Source of the DNA: Verrucomicrobiota bacterium
GTDB lineage: Bacteria; Verrucomicrobiota; Verrucomicrobiia; JABWAM01; JAHFSZ01
DNA length: 46,065 nucleotides
Assembly: GCA_023265515.1 (NCBI GenBank)
Contig: JAHFSZ010000003.1
Location: 22,889-68,953, forward strand
Direction of reading: 5' to 3'
Part shown: piece after piece, positions 2,542-30,869 of the stretch
How the letters are laid out: every line of letters begins with the position of its first letter
Numbering within the stretch: the stretch's first letter is position 1
Made by a program: the position numbers and the translations under genes
Notes under the pieces: generated by a model
Database searches by the model: none
What the model saw: the letters and a program-made list of their open reading frames with translations, nothing else
Told to the model about the DNA's origin: nothing

Positions 2542-4326
2542 ATGGCGGAGCAAATCAAAAGAAAAACTTTGGACCAGCGCGCGCAGATGTCCGATCTGGA
2601 GCGCCTGCGTCATTCGTGCGCCCATGTCATGGCGACTGCTGTGATGCGGCTGTGGCCTGACACCAAGCTCGATGTCGGCCCGCCCACGGAGGAGGGTTTC
2701 TATTACGACTTCGACGCGACGCATCGCTTCGTTCCGGAGGACTTTGAGAAGATCGAGGCCGAGATGGCGAAAGTGGTCGCCGAGAAGCAGCTCTTCCAGA
2801 AGCATGTCATGTCGCGCGACGAGGCGCTCAAAAAAATCCGCGCGATGAATCAGCCGCTTAAGGAGATCCGTCTGGCCGACATCCCGCAGGACGAGGAGAT
2901 TTCCTTTTATCAAAATGGCGATTTCGTCGACCTCTGTGCAGGGCCGCATATCGACGACACGGCGAAGGTTCGGGCGTTCAAACTGCTCTCGATTGCCGGA
3001 ACTTATTTCAAAGGCGATGCGCGCAATCCGCAGCTTCAGCGGTTGTACGGCACGGCTTTCCCGAGCGAGAAGGAGCTGCGAATCCACTTGACTGCGCTCG
3101 AGGAAGCAAAGAAGCGTGACCACCGAAAGCTTGGCAAGGAGTTGAAACTTTTTTCGATCACGCCGTTGGTGGGGGGAGGGTTGCCGTTGCTTTTGCCGAA
3201 GGGAGGCGTCATCCGCCGCGAGCTGGAGAGATTTATCGACGAGAAGCTCGATGCCCGCGGCTACGACCGCGTCTTCTCGCCGCACATCGGAGACATTCAG
3301 CTGTACAAGACGTCGGGGCACTATCCCTATTACAAGGACAGCATGTATGAGCCGGTTCATATCGACAAGGACGAGTACCTGCTTAAGCCGATGAATTGTC
3401 CGATGCATATTCAGATGTACGACAGCGAGCCGAGGAGCTACCGCGATCTGCCGCTGCGCCTTGCGGAGTTCGGGACCGTGTATCGGTACGAACAGTCCGG
3501 CGAGCTCAACGGCCTGACGCGCGTGCGCGGCTTCACCCAGGACGACGGCCACATCTTCTGCACACCCGATCAGCTTCGCGATGAAATCAAGGACTGCATC
3601 CGCCTTGTCACCGAGGTTCTGGATGTGTTCAAGCTGCCCTATCAAACGCGTGTTTCGTTGAGCGATCCCAAGAACGCCGACAAATACGCGGGGGGCCGCG
3701 AATTGTGGGACAGGGCCGAGGCTGCGCTCCAGGAGGTCGTCGATGAATTGGACATTCCATCCACGCTCGGCGTGGGAGAAGCGGCTTTCTATGGCCCGAA
3801 GCTTGATTTCATGATCAAGGATGCGCTTGGCCGCAGCTGGCAGCTTTGCACCATCCAGGTCGATTATTCGCTGCCGGAGCGTTTCAATCTCGAGTACGTC
3901 GGCAGCGACGGGCAGAAGCACCGGCCTGTCATGATCCACCGGGCCGTTTTCGGCTCGATCGAGCGGTTCATGGCCGTGCTCATCGAGCATTTTGCAGGCG
4001 CCTTCCCGGTCTGGCTCGCCCCTGAGCAGGTTCGCCTCCTGCCGATCAGTAACGATCAGGTGGCTTACGCGGAAGAACTCGCCCGGCAGCTTCGCGCGGC
4101 GAAAATTCGCGTGACAGTGGACCACAAAGCTGACAAAATTAGCGGCAAAGTTAGAAATGCGCAGTTACAGAAAGTCCCTTACATGCTTGTCGTCGGCGCG
4201 AAGGAAGCGGCCGACCAGACTGTTTCTGTGCGGGCTCGCCAGCACGGTGATCAGGGCGCCACTCCCTTCGCTGTTTTTCTGGAACGCTTGAGCCGTGAAA
4301 TAGCTTCCCGTGCATTGCCTTCGTAA
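2542..4326 (+). CDS. thrS: Threonine--tRNA ligase (lacks N-terminal TGS domain)
   Basis: RHSCAH, DLCAGPH, RDHRKLG, LKPMNCPMH, RVRGFTQDDGHIF, AAFYGPK, HRAVFGSIERF, C-terminal anticodon-binding domain. Confidence 0.98.
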   Translation: MAEQIKRKTLDQRAQMSDLERLRHSCAHVMATAVMRLWPDTKLDVGPPTEEGFYYDFDATHRFVPEDFEKIEAEMAKVVAEKQLFQKHVMSRDEALKKIRAMNQPLKEIRLADIPQDEEISFYQNGDFVDLCAGPHIDDTAKVRAFKLLSIAGTYFKGDARNPQLQRLYGTAFPSEKELRIHLTALEEAKKRDHRKLGKELKLFSITPLVGGGLPLLLPKGGVIRRELERFIDEKLDARGYDRVFSPHIGDIQLYKTSGHYPYYKDSMYEPVHIDKDEYLLKPMNCPMHIQMYDSEPRSYRDLPLRLAEFGTVYRYEQSGELNGLTRVRGFTQDDGHIFCTPDQLRDEIKDCIRLVTEVLDVFKLPYQTRVSLSDPKNADKYAGGRELWDRAEAALQEVVDELDIPSTLGVGEAAFYGPKLDFMIKDALGRSWQLCTIQVDYSLPERFNLEYVGSDGQKHRPVMIHRAVFGSIERFMAVLIEHFAGAFPVWLAPEQVRLLPISNDQVAYAEELARQLRAAKIRVTVDHKADKISGKVRNAQLQKVPYMLVVGAKEAADQTVSVRARQHGDQGATPFAVFLERLSREIASRALPS

Positions 4327-4404
4327 ATCGCGTCATGTGCCAGCCGACTTCGCTTTCTTTTCACTTCCACTCGTGAGTTCCAAACCTAAACAGGAGGATC
4401 GTCT

Positions 4405-5064
4405 ATTCAAAAGTTCATCCGTGTGAATCATCGCATTCGTGTCCCCGAAGTGCGCGTCATCGATGCCGACGGCAAACAGGTTGGCGTGCTCTCGACCCCC
4501 AAGGCGCTCGAACTTGCGCTCCGGCAGGGTCTCGATTTGGTCGAAGTTTCTCCCACCGCGCAGCCGCCCGTCTGCCGGATCGTCGACTTCGGAAAATTTC
4601 GCTACGAGATGTCCAAGAAGGAGAAGTCGGTCAGGAGCCCGGCCGCTTCGCGCGTCAAGGAACTGAAATTTCATATCAACATCGATCCGCACGACCTGGG
4701 GATCAAAATGAATCATGCGCGCGGTTTTATCGAGAAGGGAATGCGGGTGAAGATGTCGCTCGTCTTCCGTGGCCGAGAGATGATGCATGCCTATCGCGGC
4801 GAGGGGCTGATCAACCAGATTCAGACTTTGCTCGCGGACGTTGCGTTCGCGGAAGCGCCTCCCCGGATGATTGGGCGGGCGATCCACCTGATGATGGTTC
4901 CTTCGCACGGCAAGAAGGTCGAAAAGCCGCTGCCGGTACAAGGCCTGCGCATCCCCAACCACGTGTTGGGAGGCCCCGGCTCGCGGTCGTTCGGCCAGTC
5001 GGTCGACATTTCAAAGCCGGCGGTCCCGGCCCCTCCGTTGCCCACGACGGCTAAAAAGCCCTGA
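4405..5064 (+). CDS. infC: Translation initiation factor IF-3, probable ATT start
   Basis: RVNHRIR..EVRVID, LDLVEVSP..PPVCRIVDFGKFRY, FRGRE. In-frame ATT at 4405 lies 7 nt after SD AGGAGG (4392-4397); the ORF track starts at GTG 4423. Confidence 0.95.
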   Translation: MQKFIRVNHRIRVPEVRVIDADGKQVGVLSTPKALELALRQGLDLVEVSPTAQPPVCRIVDFGKFRYEMSKKEKSVRSPAASRVKELKFHINIDPHDLGIKMNHARGFIEKGMRVKMSLVFRGREMMHAYRGEGLINQIQTLLADVAFAEAPPRMIGRAIHLMMVPSHGKKVEKPLPVQGLRIPNHVLGGPGSRSFGQSVDISKPAVPAPPLPTTAKKP

Positions 5065-5131
5065 AAGGCCATTTTCCGGAAAAAAGGTGTTGCGTCGGAT
5101 GCAGGGATGCCTTAAGAGCATCCGCTTTTCT

Positions 5132-5383
5132 ATGCAGAAAACAAACAAGGCGGCTCGAAAGAGATTTAAGATCAGCGCGCGCGGCAAGGTGATGTTCCGC
5201 GGAGCGGGCAAACGGCATCTCGCCGCGAGCAAGAATCGCAAGGCCAAACGACGGCTTGGCAAGGTTCGCAACGCCAGTCCCACCGACACCTACCGGGTGA
5301 AGGGCGCCATGCCGTTCAACCGGCGTCGCTACCGGAACCGGATCGGAAACCCGGCGCCCGAGGCGGCTGCGGCCAAGGCTTAA
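5132..5383 (+). CDS. rpmI: 50S ribosomal protein L35
   Basis: MQKTNKAARKRFKISARGKV..GKRHL; lies between infC and rplT; start moved to ATG 5132. Confidence 0.93.
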   Translation: MQKTNKAARKRFKISARGKVMFRGAGKRHLAASKNRKAKRRLGKVRNASPTDTYRVKGAMPFNRRRYRNRIGNPAPEAAAAKA

Positions 5384-5399
5384 GAAATTTTTTCATCGC

Positions 5400-5464
5400 T
5401 CCTTCCGGTAAGGAAGGATGCTGTCGGGTCAAAACAAAGTCGGTTCCAAAGGGGAGCCGCACCC
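5400..5464 (+). promoter_or_regulatory. Structured rpmI-rplT intergenic RNA (two hairpins)
   Basis: TCCTTCC-GGTAA-GGAAGGA (5400-5418); CGGTTCC/GGAGCCG (5441-5459) enclosed by GGGT (5426-5429)/ACCC (5461-5464). Confidence 0.4.
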
Positions 5465-5485
5465 AAAATAGGAAAGGGCAACACC

Positions 5486-5848
5486 ATGCCTCGCACGACC
5501 AATGCACCGGCAAGCCGCCGCCGCCGCCAGCGCGTCATCAAGGCCTCGAAGGGATATCGGGGAAACCGCAGCAAGCTTTTTCGGTATGCCAAGGACGCAC
5601 AGTTTCAAGCAAAGACCTGGGCCACCGAGCACCGTCGTTACCGCAAGCGCGATTTTCGCAATTTATGGACCGTTCGCATCAACATCGCCAGCCGCAACCT
5701 GGGTATCACTTACAGCCGCTTCATGCAGGGCCTCAAAAAGGCGGGTGTCAGTCTCAATCGGAAGGTTCTCGCGGAACTGGCCGTCCATGATGCGAACACC
5801 TTCGCCGCGCTGGTAGAGAAGGCCAAGGCAAGCCTTGGCAAAAACTGA
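5486..5848 (+). CDS. rplT: 50S ribosomal protein L20
   Basis: KGYRGNRS, RKRDFRNLWTVRINIA, YSRFMQGLKKAG..LNRKVLAELA. Confidence 0.98.
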   Translation: MPRTTNAPASRRRRQRVIKASKGYRGNRSKLFRYAKDAQFQAKTWATEHRRYRKRDFRNLWTVRINIASRNLGITYSRFMQGLKKAGVSLNRKVLAELAVHDANTFAALVEKAKASLGKN

Positions 5849-20438: not shown

Positions 20439-22235
20439 ATGAGCGAGCTTCCGATCCGAAATTTCTGCATCATTGCCCACATCGACCATGGCAAGACGAC
20501 CCTTTCGGACCGGCTTTTGGAAAAAACGCATACGATCGCCATGCGCGAGATGCGCGATCAAATGCTCGATGGAATGGACCTGGAACGCGAGCGCGGCATC
20601 ACCATCAAGGCCCACCCGGTCAACATGAAGTACACGGCCAAGAACGGCCGGACTTACGAACTCAACCTGATCGACACTCCCGGGCACGTCGATTTCGCCT
20701 ACGAAGTTTCGCGGAGTCTGGCAGCGTGCGAGGGCGCCCTGCTGATCGTGGACGCGGCGCAGGGCGTGGAGGCGCAGACGGTGGCCAATGTGCACATGGC
20801 GATGAAGCAGAAGCTGCCGATCATTCCGGTGATCAACAAGGTCGATCTGCCAACAGCCGATATTCCCAACGTAAAGCACCAGCTTGAAGAGATCCTGGCG
20901 ATCCCGGGCGAGGATGCAATCCTTTGCAGCGCCAAATCAGGAATCGGGATCGACGAGGTTCTTGAAGCAGTGATCGACCGAATTCCGGCCCCCGAGGACA
21001 ACCGGAAAGCGCCACTCCAGGCGCTTGTCTTCGACAGCATGTTCGATTCCTTCCGGGGTGTGGTGGTCCATGTCCGGGTCTTCGCCGGTGAGCTTGTTCC
21101 GGGCATGTCCATCCGGCTGATGGGTGCTGGAGAGAACTACGAGGTCAAGAGCGTGGGTGTTTTCACACCGAAGCCCGAAGAGCGGGAGAGATTGGGCACT
21201 GGGAGCGCCGGTTACGTCATCGCCAATATCAAGACCCCTTCCGAGGTCAGAATTGGTGAAACAATCACCAGCGTGAAGCATCCGGCAAAGCATCCTCTGC
21301 CCGGATTCCAGGAGGTTCATCCAATGGTCTTCAGCGGCATTTATCCGCTGAACACGACGGACTACGAGCGCCTCAAGGTCAGCCTGGGCAAGCTCCAGTT
21401 GAACGACTCCTCGTTTGTTTTTCAATCAGAAAGCTCGGTGGCGCTTGGTTTCGGCTACCGGTGCGGATTCCTTGGCTTGCTTCACATGGAGATCATCCAG
21501 GAGCGACTTCGCCGCGAGTTTGATCTGGACATCATTTCCACTTACCCGAGCGTTATCTATCGCGTCGTGCGCAGCAACGGTCAGGTGCTCGAGATCGACA
21601 ACCCGGCTTTCATGCCGGACCCCTCCGTCATCGATCACATCGAGGAGCCGTATGTGCGGGTCTTTCTGATGACCCCGAACGATTCGATGGGCGACTTGAT
21701 GGGTCTTGTCATGGAACGGCGCGGCGTCTGCAAGCGGACCGAGTCGATCGATTCGCACCGCGTCATGTTGACGTGCGAAATGCCGCTCAACGAAATCCTT
21801 GTCGATTTCAGCGACAAGATCAAGACGATCACTCGCGGGTATGGCTCGATGGATTACGAGCACATGGGCCACCGTGAAGGCGACCTGGTCAAGCTCGATA
21901 TCCTGGTGAACCACGAGCCCGTGGATGCCTTCTCAAGCATCGTCCATCGTGAGAAAGCGGAATACCGGGGCCGCAGGCTTGCTGAAAAGCTCAAGGAGGT
22001 GATCCCGCAACAGCTCTTTACCATCGCCATTCAGGCGGCGATCGGCGGAAAGATCATCGCGCGGGAAACCGTCAAGTCGATGGGAAAGAACGTCACGGCA
22101 AAGTGCTATGGCGGCGACATCTCACGGAAGCGAAAGCTTTGGGAAAAGCAGAAGGAAGGCAAGAAGCGCATGAAGCAAATTGGGAAGGTGAACATCCCGC
22201 AGTCGGCATTCATTGCCGTGCTTAAAAATGATTAG
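20439..22235 (+). CDS. lepA: Elongation factor 4
   Basis: IRNFCIIAHIDHGKTTL, DTPGHVDF, NKVD, RCGFLGLLH, KCYGGDISRKRKL. Confidence 0.98.
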   Translation: MSELPIRNFCIIAHIDHGKTTLSDRLLEKTHTIAMREMRDQMLDGMDLERERGITIKAHPVNMKYTAKNGRTYELNLIDTPGHVDFAYEVSRSLAACEGALLIVDAAQGVEAQTVANVHMAMKQKLPIIPVINKVDLPTADIPNVKHQLEEILAIPGEDAILCSAKSGIGIDEVLEAVIDRIPAPEDNRKAPLQALVFDSMFDSFRGVVVHVRVFAGELVPGMSIRLMGAGENYEVKSVGVFTPKPEERERLGTGSAGYVIANIKTPSEVRIGETITSVKHPAKHPLPGFQEVHPMVFSGIYPLNTTDYERLKVSLGKLQLNDSSFVFQSESSVALGFGYRCGFLGLLHMEIIQERLRREFDLDIISTYPSVIYRVVRSNGQVLEIDNPAFMPDPSVIDHIEEPYVRVFLMTPNDSMGDLMGLVMERRGVCKRTESIDSHRVMLTCEMPLNEILVDFSDKIKTITRGYGSMDYEHMGHREGDLVKLDILVNHEPVDAFSSIVHREKAEYRGRRLAEKLKEVIPQQLFTIAIQAAIGGKIIARETVKSMGKNVTAKCYGGDISRKRKLWEKQKEGKKRMKQIGKVNIPQSAFIAVLKND

Positions 22236-22267
22236 GAAGATGAAGATTTCCTGATAATAGTCCTCGC

Positions 22268-23497
22268 ATGTTCTGTTTTACTCAACGTTCAAAACTCCGC
22301 AAACAGCTCCGCGATACAGTGGCCTTCATCCACAAGCGGATCCGGATCGACCGTGACCTGATGACCGCCAAGGAGATCATTCTCCTGCACAACGCGGCCG
22401 ACGAGGCGATGATGGGCTTCCGTGAAAAAACCGTCCCCCAGATGGAAAAGGAGATCGAGCGGCTCAACCAGGTTTACCAGAAAATCTTCCCGCCGCAGCC
22501 CGACCATTGGATCCGGGAGAACGGCGAGGTGTTCCTCGTCGCAATCCTGGTGGCCATGGCTTTTCGCGCCTACTTCCTCCAGCCGTTCCGGATTCCGACC
22601 GGCTCCATGCAGCCGACGCTCTACGGGGTTTTTCTGGAACAGAGCACCGTGGCGCCTCCGCCGAAGGCGCCCATCCGGTGGCTGCAGGGAATCCTTTTTG
22701 GAAAGAAGTACGTCTATGCGATGAACGAGGAGCGTGGCAGCATCAAGACGACCTATCTCCAGTGGGGTGGAAAATTCGGGCTCGTGCCCGAGATTACCGA
22801 AAAACCAGCCTGGCCGATGTTCGGATGGTGGCGATGGCTCTTTCCCGCCTCGGAGTTTACGATGGGGGACCGGCATTTCACGGTACCTGTCACGCGCGAC
22901 CAGCTCATGGAAATGCTCAATGAGCGAATCAAGAAGAAAGGCGAGTGGAGCGAGGACCCGGTTTTCGAGAAGGGGGAGATTGTCTTGAACTATCAGGTGA
23001 TCAATGGCGACCATCTGTTTGTCGACCGCTTCTCTTATAATTTCATCAGGCCGGAACGCGGCGACATTTTCGTGTTCGAGACCAAGGGCATCCCCGTGAG
23101 CGGCGTCGGACAGTTCTACATCAAACGATGCGTCGGCCTTCCCAACGAGACCATACAGATCAGGAACGACGACCACATTTACATCAATGGGAAGGCGATC
23201 CCCTCCGAGGGACCGTTCAAAAAAATTTATTCCAAACAGGATGGTTACATGGGCCATCTCAACCTGCGACGCTTTCATGAGCTGAAGCCGGACCAGCCGG
23301 TTTCTCCGAATGAATCCCATCTTTTGGATCAGAATGACTCGTTTCGAATTCCTCCGAAGTCTTACTGGGCGATGGGCGATAACACGACCCGCAGCGCGGA
23401 CAGTCGTTACTGGGGGCCCGTTCCGGAAAAAAATCTCGTCGGTCGCGCCTTCTTCGTTTACTGGCCGTTCGGCAAGCGCTGGGGAATTCCGGAGTAA
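22268..23497 (+). CDS. lepB: Signal peptidase I, long PVC-type form
   Basis: IPTGSMQPTL (Ser), YIKRCVGLP (Lys), MGDNTTRSADSRYWG; follows lepA; ~80-aa N-terminal extension and a large insert. Confidence 0.95.
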   Translation: MFCFTQRSKLRKQLRDTVAFIHKRIRIDRDLMTAKEIILLHNAADEAMMGFREKTVPQMEKEIERLNQVYQKIFPPQPDHWIRENGEVFLVAILVAMAFRAYFLQPFRIPTGSMQPTLYGVFLEQSTVAPPPKAPIRWLQGILFGKKYVYAMNEERGSIKTTYLQWGGKFGLVPEITEKPAWPMFGWWRWLFPASEFTMGDRHFTVPVTRDQLMEMLNERIKKKGEWSEDPVFEKGEIVLNYQVINGDHLFVDRFSYNFIRPERGDIFVFETKGIPVSGVGQFYIKRCVGLPNETIQIRNDDHIYINGKAIPSEGPFKKIYSKQDGYMGHLNLRRFHELKPDQPVSPNESHLLDQNDSFRIPPKSYWAMGDNTTRSADSRYWGPVPEKNLVGRAFFVYWPFGKRWGIPE

Positions 23498-23612: not shown

Positions 23613-24554
23613 ATGATCCGGAAATTTTTAAACCAAAGCACACTTACTTTTGTCGTTTTTTTGTCGCTGGCCTCAGCTTCGTTCGGCCAGTCCACCAATT
23701 ATGTGGAGAAGTCATCGATCGAGGAGGAGTTGGGGTCCGCCGCGTCCGGGGTCAACAACCCGGCTGTTAATGTCGGCTCGAGAGTCGTGGGCGCGGCCGT
23801 GGCGTCCCTCACGAGCGGGGCACCCAAGTCTCAGGGCTTCCAGTTCAAGGACCCGGTGATCTCGCCCAGCGGCACCTACCGGTATTATCACGATTCATCG
23901 ACTCCTGCGGGTTTTGGCGGCCATGACTGGAGCGCTGAGTTCAGCCTCGACGCGGACATCTACGACGGGCTGATCACGGGCGTCTTTTACCAGCGTCTCA
24001 CCCGGAACGGCCACAACAGCACGGGGACGAGCGAGGATCTCGATTCGGACTCCGTTTCGCTGTATGCGGCCAAACGCTTCATCGATTTGATCAACGCCGG
24101 CGCCGCCTACAATCTCTCCATCGCCGACCACGACCTGCAGGGCACCGCCATCGCCAGCCTGGACCGGACTTCCAACGGTTTCACCGCCTTCACCGGCGTC
24201 AGCGATAAGCTGGACGACTGGTTTCTATCGAGCACGCTGTCATTTACTTACGCCCATGACAACTACCGGGTCCAGCCATACCTGGATACGGGGCTCATCA
24301 CCCTGGCCAATGAGGTGAGCTACGACGTGGTCGACTTTTTCACCCTGGGCCTTGCGTTCAGCTACAACAACTTCGTCATCCAGGACACGTTTCCCGGTGT
24401 GACCGCGGTGGACGATGATTACTGGATGGTCGGTCCGCGTTTCCGCTTTTTTCCGACGGATGAATTGACGGTGAGCCTCGATCTCGACACGGAGGAGGGG
24501 TTCAGGCATTATGATGCTTACACCGTGCGTGTCGGGTGCAACTATGCGTTCTAA
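23613..24554 (+). CDS. Outer-membrane beta-barrel, autotransporter-beta-domain-like, without a passenger domain
   Basis: Sec signal (..ASASFG), a short segment of ~55 aa, then ~240 aa of alternating amphipathic strands; ends VRVGCNYAF (C-terminal Phe beta-signal). Confidence 0.8.
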   Translation: MIRKFLNQSTLTFVVFLSLASASFGQSTNYVEKSSIEEELGSAASGVNNPAVNVGSRVVGAAVASLTSGAPKSQGFQFKDPVISPSGTYRYYHDSSTPAGFGGHDWSAEFSLDADIYDGLITGVFYQRLTRNGHNSTGTSEDLDSDSVSLYAAKRFIDLINAGAAYNLSIADHDLQGTAIASLDRTSNGFTAFTGVSDKLDDWFLSSTLSFTYAHDNYRVQPYLDTGLITLANEVSYDVVDFFTLGLAFSYNNFVIQDTFPGVTAVDDDYWMVGPRFRFFPTDELTVSLDLDTEEGFRHYDAYTVRVGCNYAF

Positions 24555-25629
24555 AAGACCGGCCGTTGTCGGCTGGTTTTCCGCTCTGGGCATCTTTCTT
24601 TTGGCGCAGGCTTTCGCGTTGAAAGCCGAGCCGTTTGACCAGTTCACCGTCGAAAAAATCCGCGGTGACTCGTGCGACATCAAGGCCAAAGGCGCGCAGG
24701 ATTGGGGGAAGGCCGCCGAGGGCGCCGTCCACCCGGCAGGCTCGGCGGGCAGGACGGGCGGCGGCAGCACGATCACGCTGGCGTTCGACGAGAAGAACCG
24801 CTTCCGCATCCTTCCCCACACCGAGGTTGTTGTCAGTGTTTCGACGCGCGACGCGCGATTTCGCAAGGTGATCGACCTGTCGATGAAGGCGGGCAACGTT
24901 GAAGTCGATCTGGATGCCTTTCCGGAAAACTATCAATTTAAAGTGCAAACGCCCACGGCGGTCTGCGGCGCGGTCGGCACGCGTTTCAAGGTCGAGACCA
25001 GTGCCGGCCGGAATAACTCCTTCCAGACCGAGCAAGGGTCGATCTTTGCCGGGTCGCGCGAGGACGGCAGTTTCTACGCTCCGTCGATCAAGGCCGGCCA
25101 GAAGCTCGAGGCGGATGCCGCCCCGGGCCGGGAAAACTCCTACACGCGTCTGAAGGTCGAGGGGGGCAAGATGCCGGTGGCTTTTGGCTCGCGTGACCGG
25201 AATATGGATGTCGGCGATGGAAGCGTCGTCAAGACGGCCCAGGAGCGCAGCAGCAGCACGGGCCAGGTGGCTTTGAAGGTGGAGGGCGGATCCGTCGGCG
25301 GGCGCGGGTCGGGCCAGTACGTGATGAAGGACGGCAAGATCGAGGACCTTTCCGACGATCATGCTGGCGCCGGCCTGGTTGACGATTATGTCTCGCTGGC
25401 GGAAAAGGAAGGCGCCCTCCAGGCAAGACTCGAAAAGGCGAAGGCTGCGGGGGCTTCCGCATCCGAAATTTCGGGTTTGGAACAGGAGTTGAACGAGGCG
25501 GCGCAGAAAGCGACTGAAAAGCGCAAGGCGCTCTTCCAGCACCGGGATGTGATCCGCCGCGCGGTCCGCAGCGGCGTCGACGCCATCCGCAACCGGCCGG
25601 CCCAGGCTCCCCGCAGTCCCAGCCACTGA
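24544..25629 (+). CDS. Exported FecR-domain protein with C-terminal helical/coiled-coil region
   Basis: Signal peptide (..AQAFA); RTGGGSTITLAFD..RILPHTEV, L..G.V, FKVQTPTAVCGAVGTRFKV (FecR signature). Start ATG 24544 overlaps the barrel stop by 11 nt. Confidence 0.85.
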   Translation: MRSKRPAVVGWFSALGIFLLAQAFALKAEPFDQFTVEKIRGDSCDIKAKGAQDWGKAAEGAVHPAGSAGRTGGGSTITLAFDEKNRFRILPHTEVVVSVSTRDARFRKVIDLSMKAGNVEVDLDAFPENYQFKVQTPTAVCGAVGTRFKVETSAGRNNSFQTEQGSIFAGSREDGSFYAPSIKAGQKLEADAAPGRENSYTRLKVEGGKMPVAFGSRDRNMDVGDGSVVKTAQERSSSTGQVALKVEGGSVGGRGSGQYVMKDGKIEDLSDDHAGAGLVDDYVSLAEKEGALQARLEKAKAAGASASEISGLEQELNEAAQKATEKRKALFQHRDVIRRAVRSGVDAIRNRPAQAPRSPSH

Positions 25630-25646
25630 GACCGGGACTTTTCACC

Positions 25647-26489
25647 ATGCATCGAGCCTTTTGCGGGCTGTTCTTTTTGCTATCCACCAGCGGGTGGAAC
25701 ACACGCGCGGCTGAACCCGGCGACTACCGCTTCGCCCAGCCGGTCCGGGTCGCCACGGCCAGCTGCACGCATTTTGAATGGGTGAGCGACCTGCCGGTTT
25801 GTCTGGAAACGGCGAGGCTTCTCGAGCGCTCGGCGACCGGAAAGTTCGGTCTTCCCGCCGACCGCATTGAATCCTGGACCAACGGGACCTCGGAGGAATT
25901 TCTGGGCTGGCTCAAAACGGTTGAGGATAAGGGCGCTCCCGACGCCTCGTTGATTTTTTACTTCGTCACGCATCAGCAGAAAGACGGAAGCTTCAGATTT
26001 TCCAAGGGGGCCGATCTCTCTCCAGCGCGCTTCGTCGAGGCGGTCAACCATTTGGCTCGCCGCTATGACCGCGTGGTGCTGGTCAACGACTGCTGTTATG
26101 GCGCGGTCCTGGAGGGCGGCGGAAAGTTTTATCAAAATGTCATTCGCGTCTACGCCGCTTCCGAAGAGGAACAAGCCTTCAATCTCCGGTTCGGAAAAGG
26201 GCCTTATGGAATGGAGGAATTTTTGAAGGAAGGGCGCGCCTATCTGAAGAAACGCATGAGCTGGGACCCGCCGGGCATGACTTTTCTCGGCATCGTGGGG
26301 CTCAAGGCGGCGCTGGAAATGTCGAAAGATGCGGGCTCCCCGGTGGATCTTCAGACCTTCTTCCGCCGTTTGACCACTGCCCGGGATTTGTACGACACCT
26401 CCATCCGGCAGAAAAATGTCCAGCACATCGTTCTGGTGCCGGCGACAGCCAATTTTGAGATTCTAGTCAGGCAAGGCCGTGGCTCGTGA
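25647..26489 (+). CDS. Exported caspase/metacaspase-fold (peptidase C14-like) protein
   Basis: Signal-like N-terminus; LIFYFVTH109Q aligns with lfYfsGHG and VVLVNDCC150YG with iilDaChSG; NGT.EEF, YAAS..EQA, GMTF, VDLQTFF and the final Q follow the C14 fold order. Confidence 0.72.
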   Translation: MHRAFCGLFFLLSTSGWNTRAAEPGDYRFAQPVRVATASCTHFEWVSDLPVCLETARLLERSATGKFGLPADRIESWTNGTSEEFLGWLKTVEDKGAPDASLIFYFVTHQQKDGSFRFSKGADLSPARFVEAVNHLARRYDRVVLVNDCCYGAVLEGGGKFYQNVIRVYAASEEEQAFNLRFGKGPYGMEEFLKEGRAYLKKRMSWDPPGMTFLGIVGLKAALEMSKDAGSPVDLQTFFRRLTTARDLYDTSIRQKNVQHIVLVPATANFEILVRQGRGS

Positions 26490-26589
26490 TTCCTGCAACC
26501 TGCGGATCAGACTGAAGGACGCGTTTTAAAAGGCGACGGCCTCGATTATCTTCTTCACCCGCGAGTCGCAAAGACGCTATACAAACCCA

Positions 26590-29004
26590 ATGCCAGGTAA
26601 GCACCGCACGACGCTTGCGATTTTGCTGATCTGCACCGTCATTGCCGTCGTCGCTTCGTTGGTCAGCTCCTCAGGTTGGCTGGAAATCTACGAGCTGAAG
26701 ATGATCAACGCCCAGTTCCAACTCCGGTACTGGCTGCGAAGCGGCCTGAATCGTGTCCGCGTGAGCGACCGGGTTGTGCTCGCCGGGATCGATGCAAAGA
26801 CTGTGGATCCGTCCTTTTCGAATTTTTCCGACCGTTGGGGAACGGGGGGGTGGTGGACAAGAGATCACTGGGTTCGCGCGATGGAATATCTGGCATATTA
26901 CAAACCGAAAGTCTTTGCATGCGATGTCTTTTTCAGTCCGCATCGGACGCGCTTTAGAGATACATCCGCCTACCAGCAGGACACCATCGATTCGGTCGAA
27001 CAAACCATCCGACAGAAGAAGGCCGGACTGCGGGATTTGGCGAAAGGAGAAAAGTTCCCGCGACTCGAGATTCTCGACATCATTGACGATTCAGGGAGCA
27101 ACACGCTCGCAAGCCGGTTTTTCGACATCGAAGACGCCCGCGCTAACGGAGAGAAGATGCCCCAGTTCGTGATCCCATTTTACTTTAATCGCAGGCAGGA
27201 GAATTCCTCGGAGCCGTGGGCCGCGGAGAAGGACTCCGAAAAAATCGACCGTTTGAAGCGTCAATCGATTCCTCCGAGTTGTCTTTCGGGCGTGCCGGCG
27301 GATTATCCTTTTGCCGACAGTGCGACGCTGCCGTTCGATTCGCTGCTGGATGCCCCAGTGACTCTGGGTTTCATCGACGTACCCCGCGATCCCGAGGACG
27401 GAAACATCCGGCGGGTTCCCCTGGTCCAGGGTTTTCGCGATCCGCGGTCGGGCACGCCTGTGTTCCTGCCGTCGTTATCGCTGGCCGCGTGCCTCTTGGA
27501 CATGGGTATCCCGCTCGAAACACTCGGCACGGAGCAACCGGGATCGGGAATCCGCGTGGAATTTGGCAAGGAAATCCATCTTTGGAACAAGGATCGCCAT
27601 CTACGCATCCCCATTGACCTGCGAGGATCCATGTTTTTGAACTTCGAGGGAAAAATCCGGGATTTTCCGCAGGTATCGTTCGTGGACATGATCCGCGGCG
27701 GCCGGGCGAAGGAAGTCCGCGACCTTCTGCAGGACCGGGTGGTGATTGCCGGCGTGACATTCACGGGCGGCACGGATGTCGGCCCGTGTGCCATCGATTC
27801 CAACGTTCCGCTGGCGTTCATTCACATGACGGCAGTCGATGATATCCTGCGGCAAAGTTTTCTGCGCCCGGCCGGCCGTTGGACTCGAACCGGAATTCTT
27901 TTCGCCCTTCTTGCGCTCGTCGGATGGATTAATTCCACCTCGCGGGCGCGAGTCAGCGGCTTCGGGACGTTTTTTCTGCTCCTGGGGTATATTACTGCCG
28001 CGTTTCTGCTCTTCTTTTCCAACATCGCCAGCCTGCCAGTGGTCGTCCCGGCCCTCTCCTTGATCATCGGGTTTGCTGCGATTTCACTCTTCCGATACCA
28101 GGTGGAGCAGAAGGGGCGGATTGATATCCGGAAAAAATTCTCCTCGATGGTTTCCGGGGATCTTCTGGAGCGGATGGAGGAGAACCCCGAAAGCCTGGCC
28201 CTTGGCGGCGAGCGGCGCGACGTGACAGTTTTCTTTTCCGACGTGGCGGGATTCACGCACGTCGCGGAGACCCTGACACCGGAGAAACTGGTCGAGGTGA
28301 TCAACACGTACCTGACGCCGATGACCGAAATCATCCTTTTGAGCCACGGGTATTTGAACAAGTTCCTGGGTGACGGGATCATGGCGGTGTGGGGCGCGCC
28401 TTTGCCGCAGGCGAACCACGCCGAACGGGCGTGCCTGGCGGCTTTGGCCCAACAGCGGAAGATTGACGAGCTCCGGCCGCTCTTCCGCGAAAAGTTCGGC
28501 GTCGAGCTGAAGGTTCGCATGGGCATCAACACCGGCCCGGTCGACGCGGGCAACATGGGCTCGCTCAACCGGTTCGAATACACGGTTATGGGCGACTCGG
28601 TGAACCTGGCGGCGCGCCTGGAGCCGGCCAACAAGGACTACGGCACCCGGATCCTGATCGGTCGGGGGACCTTCGAGCAAATCCGCGGGAAGGACTTCGC
28701 GGTTCGCCTGCTCGACCGGATTGTCGTCGAGGGCAAAACAGAGCCCGCCGAAATCTACGAGCTGTCGGGCATGGAGGGCGACCAGTCGCCGCGGGATCGA
28801 GAGGCCGTTGGGTTATTCGAGGGGGGATTGCGGCTTTACTGGGAGCGGAAATGGGACCAGGCCTTGGAGTGTTTTGAGGGTGCCCTGAAGATTGTTCCCG
28901 GCGACGCGGCGGTGGGCCTGTTCATCCGGCGGGTGAAAGCGTGCCGGCAAACGCCTCCCCCCGCGGAGTGGAACGGTGTGTACGTCAGGGAAGGAAAAAG
29001 TTAG
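26590..29004 (+). CDS. CHASE2-sensor class III adenylate cyclase with C-terminal TPR-like helices
   Basis: N-terminal TM; CHASE2 (ELK..., VVLAGID, W.RDHW, DVFF, DG.IRR.PL, SLSLA); 3 TMs; catalytic FFSDVAGFT, NKFLGDG, RMGINTG, GNMGS..RFEYTVMGDSVNLAARLE (Lys/Thr indicate ATP specificity). Confidence 0.93.
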   Translation: MPGKHRTTLAILLICTVIAVVASLVSSSGWLEIYELKMINAQFQLRYWLRSGLNRVRVSDRVVLAGIDAKTVDPSFSNFSDRWGTGGWWTRDHWVRAMEYLAYYKPKVFACDVFFSPHRTRFRDTSAYQQDTIDSVEQTIRQKKAGLRDLAKGEKFPRLEILDIIDDSGSNTLASRFFDIEDARANGEKMPQFVIPFYFNRRQENSSEPWAAEKDSEKIDRLKRQSIPPSCLSGVPADYPFADSATLPFDSLLDAPVTLGFIDVPRDPEDGNIRRVPLVQGFRDPRSGTPVFLPSLSLAACLLDMGIPLETLGTEQPGSGIRVEFGKEIHLWNKDRHLRIPIDLRGSMFLNFEGKIRDFPQVSFVDMIRGGRAKEVRDLLQDRVVIAGVTFTGGTDVGPCAIDSNVPLAFIHMTAVDDILRQSFLRPAGRWTRTGILFALLALVGWINSTSRARVSGFGTFFLLLGYITAAFLLFFSNIASLPVVVPALSLIIGFAAISLFRYQVEQKGRIDIRKKFSSMVSGDLLERMEENPESLALGGERRDVTVFFSDVAGFTHVAETLTPEKLVEVINTYLTPMTEIILLSHGYLNKFLGDGIMAVWGAPLPQANHAERACLAALAQQRKIDELRPLFREKFGVELKVRMGINTGPVDAGNMGSLNRFEYTVMGDSVNLAARLEPANKDYGTRILIGRGTFEQIRGKDFAVRLLDRIVVEGKTEPAEIYELSGMEGDQSPRDREAVGLFEGGLRLYWERKWDQALECFEGALKIVPGDAAVGLFIRRVKACRQTPPPAEWNGVYVREGKS

Positions 29005-29020
29005 CACGATAAGGTCAGGG

Positions 29021-30148
29021 ATGTTCACGCGTCGAATCACCATCTGTCGTCTGTTTGGAATCGCGATCCACATCGATATGAGCTGGCTCTTGATCGCAGG
29101 ACTCGTGATCTGGAGCTTCGCGGTGAACTATTTTCCGCAGGAAATCCGCGGCCTGCCGGCGAGCGTCTATTTGCTGATGGGCTTCGGGGTGGCGGCCGGC
29201 CTGCTTTTTTCGATCATCTTTCACGAGATGTCCCACTGCATCGTTGCCAAACAGCAGGGGATCGCGATCCAGGGCATCACCCTTTTTTTATTTGGCGGCG
29301 TGGCCGAGATGGAAGAGGAGCCGCCCAGCCCAAAATCGGAATTCCTGATGACCATCGCAGGCCCGCTCGCGAGCCTCTTGCTGGCGGCCGTTTTCTGGCT
29401 CATCGCGAGGCTTTTCCAAACGCCGGGGTGGGGCCTCATCGTCAGCAAGGTCTTTGGTTACCTGATGATGATGAATTTTGGGCTCGCCATTTTCAACATG
29501 ATCCCGGCTTTTCCGCTCGATGGGGGCAGGATCCTGCGCTCGCTGCTCTGGGGCTGGAAAGGAAGCCTGCGATGGGCCACGGGAATCGCCACCTCTCTCG
29601 GATCGGGTTTCGGGATCATCCTGATCGTCGCGGGCATGCTCCTGGTCGTCAATCAGCAGTGGGGCGGCATCTGGTGGGTTCTGATCGGCATGTTTGTGCG
29701 ATACGCCGCGCAGATGTCGTACCAGCAGATGCTGGTCCGGCGCGGTCTTGAGGGCGAGCCGGTGCGCAGGTTCATGCGGGAAAACCCGGTCACGGTTGGG
29801 CCTTCGGTGAATCTGCGCGAGTTCGTCGAGAATTACGTCTACCGGCACCACTTCAAGATGTTCCCGGTGCTGGAAAATGGACGGCTGACGGGGTGCGCGA
29901 CCACGAGCCGCCTCAAGGAGATCCCCATCGAGCAGTGGAATGGTAAAACGGTGTCAGACATCTTCCAACCCTGCTCTCAGGAGAACACAATCGATCCGGG
30001 TGCGGACGCCATGAAGGCGTTGACTCGGATGAACCGCAACCGGGCAAGTCGCCTGATGGTGGTCGAGAACGGCCAGCTCAAGGGGATTCTCTCGCTGAAG
30101 GACCTGCTGGATTTCCTCTCACTGAAAATCGAGCTCGAAGAGGAATGA
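29021..30148 (+). CDS. Site-2 (M50) intramembrane metalloprotease with tandem CBS domains
   Basis: HEMSH, LFLFGGVA, AGP, FNMIPAFPLDGGR; two C-terminal CBS repeats (FPVLENGRLTG, LMVVENGQLKGILS..DLL). Confidence 0.93.
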   Translation: MFTRRITICRLFGIAIHIDMSWLLIAGLVIWSFAVNYFPQEIRGLPASVYLLMGFGVAAGLLFSIIFHEMSHCIVAKQQGIAIQGITLFLFGGVAEMEEEPPSPKSEFLMTIAGPLASLLLAAVFWLIARLFQTPGWGLIVSKVFGYLMMMNFGLAIFNMIPAFPLDGGRILRSLLWGWKGSLRWATGIATSLGSGFGIILIVAGMLLVVNQQWGGIWWVLIGMFVRYAAQMSYQQMLVRRGLEGEPVRRFMRENPVTVGPSVNLREFVENYVYRHHFKMFPVLENGRLTGCATTSRLKEIPIEQWNGKTVSDIFQPCSQENTIDPGADAMKALTRMNRNRASRLMVVENGQLKGILSLKDLLDFLSLKIELEEE

Positions 30149-30149
30149 T

Positions 30150-30869
30150 TCAGCGCCGCAGTTTTTTCAGCTCGGCGATGAAGGCCGCGGGCCCGCCTTC
30201 CATATAGCCGAGCGTGCCGACCTGACGGCCCTGCGAGTCCAGGATGACAACCGTGGGAAACCCGGAAATGTGGTATTGTCCGGCGAGGCGGTCGTTCTGC
30301 TGCTTGACGTTCGCAGGCAGCGCCGTGTGCTTTGGAAAGTCCACTTTCAAGAGGACCAGGTTTTGCTCCGCATAGTCCTTGAATTCCTGCCTGCTGAAGA
30401 CTTCCGCATCGAGCTTCTTGCACCAGCCGCACCAGTCCGAGCCTGTGAAATCCATCAGCAGGAGCTTGTTTTCCTCCCGGGCGTACTGGGATGCCTTCGG
30501 ATGATCCTCGAGCCATTCGAAAGCGCGCGGCGGTTTCGATTTCGAGATGATGACGGGCTTGGGTCCCGACGGAGACGATGATTTGGGGGCTCGTCCCACA
30601 TCCTCGGCGCGGCACAGCCCGGTCAGGAACTTTCCGTCCTGTCCAAGGTAGCTGATATGGACCATGCCGGGGGCATCGGCGGGCTTGCCAATTTCAAGTT
30701 TGGTTCCCGCATTGAATTGGCCGATCTGCTTGTCAGGCGCGGCAACATCGAACACGCCGATGGGTTCGGTGCAGAGATACGGTTCCGCGGATGCCTCCAC
30801 GGTCGCAAGCAAAAACGCGGCTCCCATCAGCGGCAGAAATAAATTCAGATGACACACACAGCGTTGCAT
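30150..30869 (-). CDS. Exported thioredoxin-family disulfide oxidoreductase with an extra N-terminal beta domain
   Basis: Signal peptide; FTGSDWCGWC, VDFP, cis-Pro GFPT; N-terminal ~70-aa SH3-like segment. Confidence 0.87.
   Translation of the reverse strand: MQRCVCHLNLFLPLMGAAFLLATVEASAEPYLCTEPIGVFDVAAPDKQIGQFNAGTKLEIGKPADAPGMVHISYLGQDGKFLTGLCRAEDVGRAPKSSSPSGPKPVIISKSKPPRAFEWLEDHPKASQYAREENKLLLMDFTGSDWCGWCKKLDAEVFSRQEFKDYAEQNLVLLKVDFPKHTALPANVKQQNDRLAGQYHISGFPTVVILDSQGRQVGTLGYMEGGPAAFIAELKKLRR

Follow-up and report, generated by a model that had tools for sequence, protein, structure and literature searches.

We analysed a 46,065-nucleotide (nt) stretch of DNA from an uncultivated groundwater bacterium of the phylum Verrucomicrobiota (assembly GCA_023265515.1, contig JAHFSZ010000003.1, positions 22,889 to 68,953 of the forward strand), called the window below, and found four adjacent genes, g1 to g4, that probably make up one conserved cassette for sensing at the cell envelope and signalling through cyclic AMP (cAMP). 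The genes encode a secreted outer-membrane β-barrel (g1), an exported FecR-domain protein (g2), a secreted protein resembling the clan-CD cysteine peptidases (g3) and a CHASE2 receptor adenylate cyclase (g4). If this reading is right, the set corresponds in split form to the NsrA/CyaK system of Sinorhizobium meliloti and works independently of a sigma factor. Gene positions are those of the window.

All four genes lie in the same orientation on the + strand. g1 (23613-24554, +) encodes 313 amino acids (aa). The open reading frame (ORF) of g2 (24544-25629, +) opens at 24511, and its likely start is the ATG at 24544, where the N termini of orthologues line up in an alignment with seven of them. 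g3 (25647-26489, +; 280 aa) is followed, after a 100-nt spacer (26490-26589), by g4 (26590-29004, +; 804 aa). A fifth gene on the same strand, g5 (29021-30148, +; ORF open from 28976, likely start ATG 29021), encodes an M50-CBS protein. An earlier note, made from the sequence of this DNA alone, had described five co-oriented genes, and the ORF calls with likely starts bear this out, giving the same intergenic gaps from g1 to g5 of -11, 17, 100 and 16 nt.

Conservation of the four-gene set

Homologues of g3 were present in nine of the 10 genomes of the sister family within the same order, with weak matches in three of a further 50 genomes from the class. Complete cassettes, with the four genes side by side in one orientation, occur at four loci in four genomes (L014-L017). 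The gene order is barrel, FecR, g3, cyclase at three of these (L014, L016 and L017) and FecR, barrel, g3, cyclase at the other (L015). The cassette proteins are 40-50% identical to their sister-family counterparts. The flanks of the cassette vary by locus and include genes for an aminotransferase, PNPase, a restriction enzyme, an NADH dehydrogenase subunit and an O-antigen ligase. As the four genes are kept together in other genomes amid unrelated flanks, their arrangement is far beyond chance, and the expectation that barrel, FecR, caspase-fold and CHASE2 cyclase genes would co-occur in relatives was confirmed in full at these four loci.

Three further loci, cut by contig ends, retain parts that agree with the set, namely g3 and the cyclase (L019), the barrel, FecR and g3 (L023), and the barrel, FecR and an interrupted g3 (L024); a 67-aa g3 fragment at another contig end (L010) is uninformative. 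A scan of metagenomes with P0003 yielded one 3.7-kilobase (kb) locus, and on the metagenome contig (L109) g3 is followed by the cyclase, with nothing recognisable upstream.

A scan of the + strand of the g3-g4 spacer revealed no sigma-70-like promoter or terminator-like site, with the reservation that the sigma-70 consensus may not fit this phylum; promoter and terminator counts over the whole scanned region were close to the shuffle expectation. The length of this spacer ranges from ~15 to 380 nt in relatives. No match to Sigma70_r2 or to a TonB-dependent receptor was found on the window's contig, with eight and one, respectively, elsewhere in the genome. This agrees with the statement that neither an extracytoplasmic function (ECF) sigma factor nor a TonB-dependent receptor is nearby.

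Folds and domains of the encoded proteins

Domains were sought with Pfam and NCBIfam scans, and AlphaFold2 models of g1 and g3 were compared with known structures using Foldseek. Together with hhalign comparisons, these analyses upheld all five domain and fold calls of the earlier note, including His109 and Cys150 of g3. Hydrophobic signal-like segments are present at the N termini of g1, g2 and g3 alike, and g4 has transmembrane (TM) segments before and after CHASE2. The predicted envelope layout of the products therefore matches the one proposed earlier, which spans every compartment of the envelope.

g1 matched no family in Pfam, the autotransporter family included, or in NCBIfam. Its model, built from 24 sequences (pLDDT, the predicted local distance difference test score, 85.9), consists of a signal peptide, helices at residues 33-43 and 50-67, and 12-13 strands (residues 76-312) ending in a C-terminal YAF. 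The top Foldseek matches were autotransporter β-domains, namely EstA (E 4e-10; TMq 0.68, TMq and TMt being template-modelling scores) and NalP (TMt 0.67-0.71). Further 12-strand autotransporter β-domains (Hbp, EspP, AIDA-I and BrkA) were also among the best matches, with FadL, CymA and FapF after them. The structural match to type Va β-domains reached a TMt of 0.73. In its model, g1 resembles these β-domains (NalP, EspP, EstA) and FapF in having a predicted 12-strand barrel after a helix, putatively a pore helix. Unlike the type Va autotransporters, it lacks an N-terminal passenger; only ~45 residues separate its signal peptide from the first strand, which begins at residue 76 of 313. The g1 family is rare, with 22 clusters among 5.8 billion proteins.

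g2 has a FecR domain (PF04773; 32.4 bits, above the Pfam cut-off of 24; E 1.3e-7) between an N-terminal hydrophobic signal and a helical, basic C-terminal tail that is kept in orthologues, as judged from hydropathy and the alignment of seven orthologues. g2 shares this domain with FecR-type anti-sigma factors, but its N terminus is signal-like and hydrophobic and contains no cytoplasmic anti-sigma domain, and the contig has no match to the ECF sigma factor and TonB-dependent transducer that adjoin such factors. Complex prediction for CHASE2 (residues 28-445) with mature g2 (residues 40-372) scored 0.02 against a mark of 0.32, which is evidence neither way.

g3 had no Pfam or NCBIfam match. It fell below the gathering scores of PF00656 and PF01650, and only chance Pfam hits appeared at E<=10. 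Its AlphaFold2 model, made from 16 sequences (pLDDT 89.2; predicted template-modelling score, pTM, 0.86), matched GPI8, metacaspase-9, legumain, MALT1 and caspases with a Foldseek probability of 1.00 and TMq values of 0.5-0.57. GPI8 was best (E 1.7e-9), Arabidopsis metacaspase-9 reached a TMq of 0.57, and 360 chains matched at E<=1e-3. The modelled fold of g3 is thus that of clan CD, the group of caspases, legumain and GPI8, and its nearest feature neighbours in the ESM Atlas are C13 and C14 clusters. Among the proteins found with the g3 family profile, P0136, P0145 and P0164 score above the Pfam threshold for Peptidase_C14, and the sequence link of g3 to C14 runs only through this profile. 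When g3 was aligned with one of these, P0136, using hhalign (probability 97.5%), H109 fell on an SGHG motif and C150 on a DACHSG motif, both of which we take to be catalytic in P0136.

Among 61 representatives of the g3 family, C150 and D148 are present in all 61 and H109 in 45. In the close homologues, H109, Q110, D148 and C150 are invariant (16 of 16). As in the clan-CD peptidases, both C14 (metacaspases and orthocaspases) and C13 (legumain, GPI8), the His and Cys of g3 follow equivalent strands. g3 differs from these enzymes in having HQ rather than HG, the residue after the His being Gln in place of the usual Gly, and in being a small, single-domain protein with a Sec signal for export that lies under every Pfam threshold. 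Searching the Protein Data Bank (PDB) with the g3 sequence profile gave only a sub-threshold match to GPI8 (E 0.16), in which the alignment is shifted by one residue and places the Gln on the catalytic His. Because of this shift and the Gln after the His, we consider the assignment of His109 and Cys150 as the putative catalytic dyad to be good but not certain. The family is rare, with 13 clusters among 5.8 billion proteins in a word-indexed search and 171 matches to its profile at E<=0.001 among 1.84 billion representatives.

The C14 proteins P0136 and P0145 themselves carry a β-rich C-terminal stretch of ~200 aa that has the look of a membrane barrel. Homology between the g1 barrel and this part of P0136 was considered and rejected (hhalign 2.4%).

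g4 contains CHASE2 (100.5 bits) and Guanylate_cyc (86.4 bits) domains in Pfam. From Pfam and hydropathy, its predicted topology is a TM segment at residues 7-25, a periplasmic CHASE2 domain at 18-445, a cluster of TM segments at ~432-500 and a cytoplasmic class III cyclase domain at 543-723. Residues D551, K591, D595, D669, N672 and R676 are invariant in six orthologues. We take these to have the metal, adenine and transition-state roles, with the Lys/Asp pair specifying adenine. Judged by its residues, then, g4 has the complete canonical set of a class III cyclase. Downstream parts for cAMP signalling are also encoded, as the genome carries six class III cyclase matches and seven matches to proteins that bind cyclic nucleotide monophosphates (cNMP).

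CHASE2 neighbourhoods and related systems

To place the cassette in context, we surveyed the neighbours of CHASE2 genes across the phylum. Of the 401 genomes sampled, 151 encode CHASE2. At 40 loci, one per family (L068-L107), we compared the ORFs at ±1 and ±2 from the CHASE2 gene (152 ORFs) with those at ±4 and ±5, which served as controls (122 ORFs). FecR was clearly the commonest Pfam family beside CHASE2, accounting for 16 of the 152 neighbours (8 of 80 plus 8 of 72). Among the control ORFs no family had more than two members, and FecR was not among the families with two. FecR beside CHASE2 is therefore a general module. The other neighbours included OMP_b-brl and cNMP_binding (two each). 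Slam-type outer-membrane proteins (SlipAM) and Peptidase_M48 proteins recurred with four each among the 152, and such other barrels and other proteases may serve similar roles.

The g3 family is far less common, occurring in eight of the 401 genomes, its own included. Outside the order, a g3-family gene adjoins a gene for a g1-family barrel at two loci (L022, hhalign 97.2%; L020, 79%) and follows a FecR gene at another (L035), where the g3-family protein is fused to Transglut_core2 and tetratricopeptide repeats (TPRs; L035:9973-11817). The same fusion was present in six of the six long members scanned (P0058, P0071, P0077, P0080, P0090 and P0115; 560-706 aa). The genes beside the g3-family gene at three other loci (L034, L036 and L037) included no recognisable partner. 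The pairing with a barrel at L022 and L020 and with FecR at L035 suggests that g3 works on or with envelope proteins as its direct partners. It also suggests that, in the order to which the window belongs, a pair made up of a caspase-like protein and an envelope protein has been joined to a FecR-CHASE2 sensor. L022 belongs to a distant genome; downstream of its barrel and g3 genes are two genes that share one orientation and encode proteins of 346 and 641 aa (L022:2627-3667 and 3664-5589) with no Pfam match. As counterparts of FecR and the cyclase they were rejected, being unrelated to both profiles.

Several published systems resemble the cassette. NsrA, an outer-membrane β-barrel protein whose barrel spans aa 600-1200 (PMC7529298), is needed for signalling via the CHASE2 cyclase CyaK in S. 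meliloti (PMC7529298, PMC13001267). On S. meliloti pSymB (L025), a gene for a 1197-aa protein lies directly upstream of a CHASE2 cyclase gene, its stop overlapping the cyclase start. This protein has a FecR domain (E 1.6e-15) and TPRs, both of which precede a C-terminal barrel region that is annotated as a TonB-dependent receptor. Its size and position, together with the published barrel boundaries (PMC7529298), make it very likely to be NsrA. Since the likely NsrA carries FecR, the rhizobial system is tied to the general pairing of FecR with CHASE2. In the same species, the FecR protein SMc02177 is a target of Clr (PMC5498481). Immediately upstream of the gene for the FecR-TPR-barrel protein, and divergent from it, pSymB encodes a 181-aa PycTM protein of the Pycsar effector type (L025:114-659, -; E 9e-12).

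The window thus has the domain set of the NsrA/CyaK system (also CyaD1/CyaD2 and Clr) in common, comprising FecR, a barrel, CHASE2 and a cyclase, and in both cases the FecR and barrel parts are encoded directly upstream of the cyclase. The analogy with NsrA/CyaK drawn in the earlier note proved closer than it had recognised, as the likely NsrA has FecR and TPRs before its barrel. In the window, two small proteins provide the barrel and FecR parts, whereas the likely NsrA joins FecR, TPRs and barrel in one polypeptide. The window also adds a secreted caspase-fold protein, and the products of g1 to g5 show no Pfam TPR match.

Other systems share parts of this arrangement. In Campylobacterota, a CHASE2 cyclase gene is clustered with a gene for an outer-membrane protein that has a FecR domain, and the two have been proposed to form a single pathway (PMC9239204). 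The same cluster encodes a cAMP phosphodiesterase and a TPR protein. It has the CHASE2 cyclase and FecR-domain protein of the window, with no caspase-like member described; conversely, Pfam turned up no phosphodiesterase and no TPR protein in g1 to g5. In the Burkholderia 'BiofilmReg' operon and at P. aeruginosa PA4035/PA4036, a LysM-FecR protein adjoins a CHASE2 kinase (PMC5192318). Here too an exported FecR-domain protein stands beside a CHASE2 receptor. The output differs, being a histidine kinase and a response regulator; the FecR protein has LysM, the fourth gene encodes a DUF4136 protein, and barrel, caspase-like protein and cyclase are absent. Trichodesmium has a metacaspase-CHASE2 fusion with a cytoplasmic caspase domain (PMC3501461, PMC2853523), an arrangement unlike that of g3, which is separate and secreted.

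The combination had been put forward as undescribed, and this holds in part. Earlier papers (PMC9239204, PMC5192318) already report the core of FecR, an outer-membrane protein and a CHASE2 cyclase. We did not find a secreted clan-CD member in a FecR/CHASE2 cluster in the literature extracts returned by searches for CHASE2 with caspase or CHAT domains, and the apparently new element is the secreted caspase-fold partner only.

Proposed signalling path, alternatives and flanking genes

What we regard as shown is the synteny, together with the folds, domains and export signals of the products and the dyad of g3; we infer physical contacts between the proteins, a direction of signalling, and a peptidase activity and substrate for g3. 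g1 and g2 would relay a cue from the surface or the periplasm to the CHASE2 domain of g4, and the cytoplasmic domain of g4 would make cAMP, to be read by some of the seven cNMP-binding proteins of the genome. g3 would most likely act on its envelope neighbours, either on the N-terminal helical segment of g1 or on the tail of g2, and cleavage by g3 would set or reset the CHASE2 input. That g3 is an active peptidase gating the signal by cleaving g1 or g2 is a tentative proposal. Tentative, too, is the specific version in which g3 is a switch that, on a surface cue, cleaves the g1 plug segment or the g2 tail to release a product that is itself the ligand or activator of CHASE2. If true, it would be the first mechanism of CHASE2 activation and the first signalling role of any caspase-fold protease located outside the cytoplasm of bacteria.

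The cassette may show how the CHASE2 type of sensor is switched on. One study describes CHASE2 cues as unknown or unresolved (PMC5192318), as does another for the plant signal (PMC7529298). The cassette offers a compact set of four proteins, in which an apparent enzyme with two obvious active-site residues stands between an outer-membrane protein and a receptor, and it makes the question of CHASE2 activation testable by reconstitution. g3 also adds a rare, unannotated family to clan CD.

Several observations weigh against a single sensing cassette of this kind. At L024, the barrel, FecR and g3 genes are present with an in-frame TGA in g3 (L024:1328-2173), and no cyclase lies downstream. L018 has a solitary g3 homologue (L018:8016-8855) with Leu at the position of H109 and Ser at that of C150, and H109 is replaced in 16 of the 61 family representatives. 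The seven g3-family loci outside the order (L020-L022 and L034-L037) had no CHASE2 beside g3 when selected neighbours were scanned with Pfam and a narrow CHASE2 model that recognised 27 of 40 known CHASE2 ORFs; the link between g3 and CHASE2 is therefore lineage-restricted in this sample. Among the 152 neighbours of CHASE2 genes, only one was a CHAT protein. The genome's second CHASE2 cyclase (645 aa; G000:C25:22620-24557, L108:7620-9557) is flanked by genes for a phosphorylase-superfamily protein and a PtsI-like protein; a cNMP-binding protein of 556 aa is encoded 3.7 kb downstream, and no FecR, barrel or caspase-like partner adjoins the cyclase, indicating that CHASE2 cyclases need no such partners in general. 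Finally, hhalign gave no sign of homology between the barrels of g1 and the NsrA-like protein (probability 0.6%). As the barrel profiles are unrelated, g1 and g2 are not an orthologue of NsrA; they are its split counterpart by predicted domain content.

Three other explanations were weighed. The four genes could represent two modules side by side, a barrel with a clan-CD peptidase that functions in secretion or surface processing, in the style of a plugged 12-strand channel served by a cysteine peptidase of the periplasm, and a FecR-CHASE2 sensor, linked by shared regulation or history and not by a common signalling route. The pairs of barrel and g3 without FecR or CHASE2 at L022 and L020 would fit this arrangement, as would the wide occurrence of FecR-CHASE2 pairs without a caspase-like protein and the resemblance of g1 to translocator barrels such as autotransporter β-domains and FapF. 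We nevertheless think it unlikely, as the four genes stay side by side in several genera, with 40-50% identity and changing flanks, the set stayed unbroken when its internal order was shuffled once, and the partner of the g3-family protein at L035 is FecR and not a barrel. Less likely again is that g3 serves as a non-catalytic scaffold or in maturation or quality control, such as the one-time trimming of a pro-segment as the system is assembled, rather than as a signalling switch. The incomplete conservation of H109, the degenerate copy at L018, the invariant Gln after the His and the register of the sub-threshold GPI8 alignment all favour such a role. The constancy of C150 and D148 throughout the family, the full dyad in every close homologue and the placement of H109 on the catalytic His of the C14 protein by hhalign argue against it.

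The last alternative extends the cassette to g5, and we regard it as highly improbable. g5 contains Peptidase_M50 (84 bits) and CBS (59.7 bits) matches in Pfam, with two CBS domains and an HEMSH motif visible in its translation, and belongs to the M50 class of site-2-protease-like membrane metalloproteases. A five-gene pathway would couple regulated intramembrane proteolysis to cAMP or to the sensing of adenosyl nucleotides through the CBS domains. Such coupling would suit the gap of only 16 nt between g4 and g5 on the same strand, and CBS domains commonly bind adenosyl ligands. However, of the five loci in relatives where the sequence continues past the cyclase, none had an M50-CBS homologue beside the cassette, and M50 does not figure among the most frequent families listed for the 152 ORFs neighbouring CHASE2 genes. 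The earlier note had placed this gene in the system with less certainty than the rest. As it does not travel with the set in relatives, g5 is merely a neighbour, and the conserved unit consists of the four genes g1 to g4.

The genes flanking this region of the window, lepA, a lepB-type gene and a thioredoxin-like gene, show no synteny with the cassette in relatives. Upstream of the cassette, on the same strand, are lepA and a gene for a 409-aa S26 signal peptidase (window 20439-23497). Downstream of g5 lies the thioredoxin-like gene (window 30150-30869), which is convergent with it.

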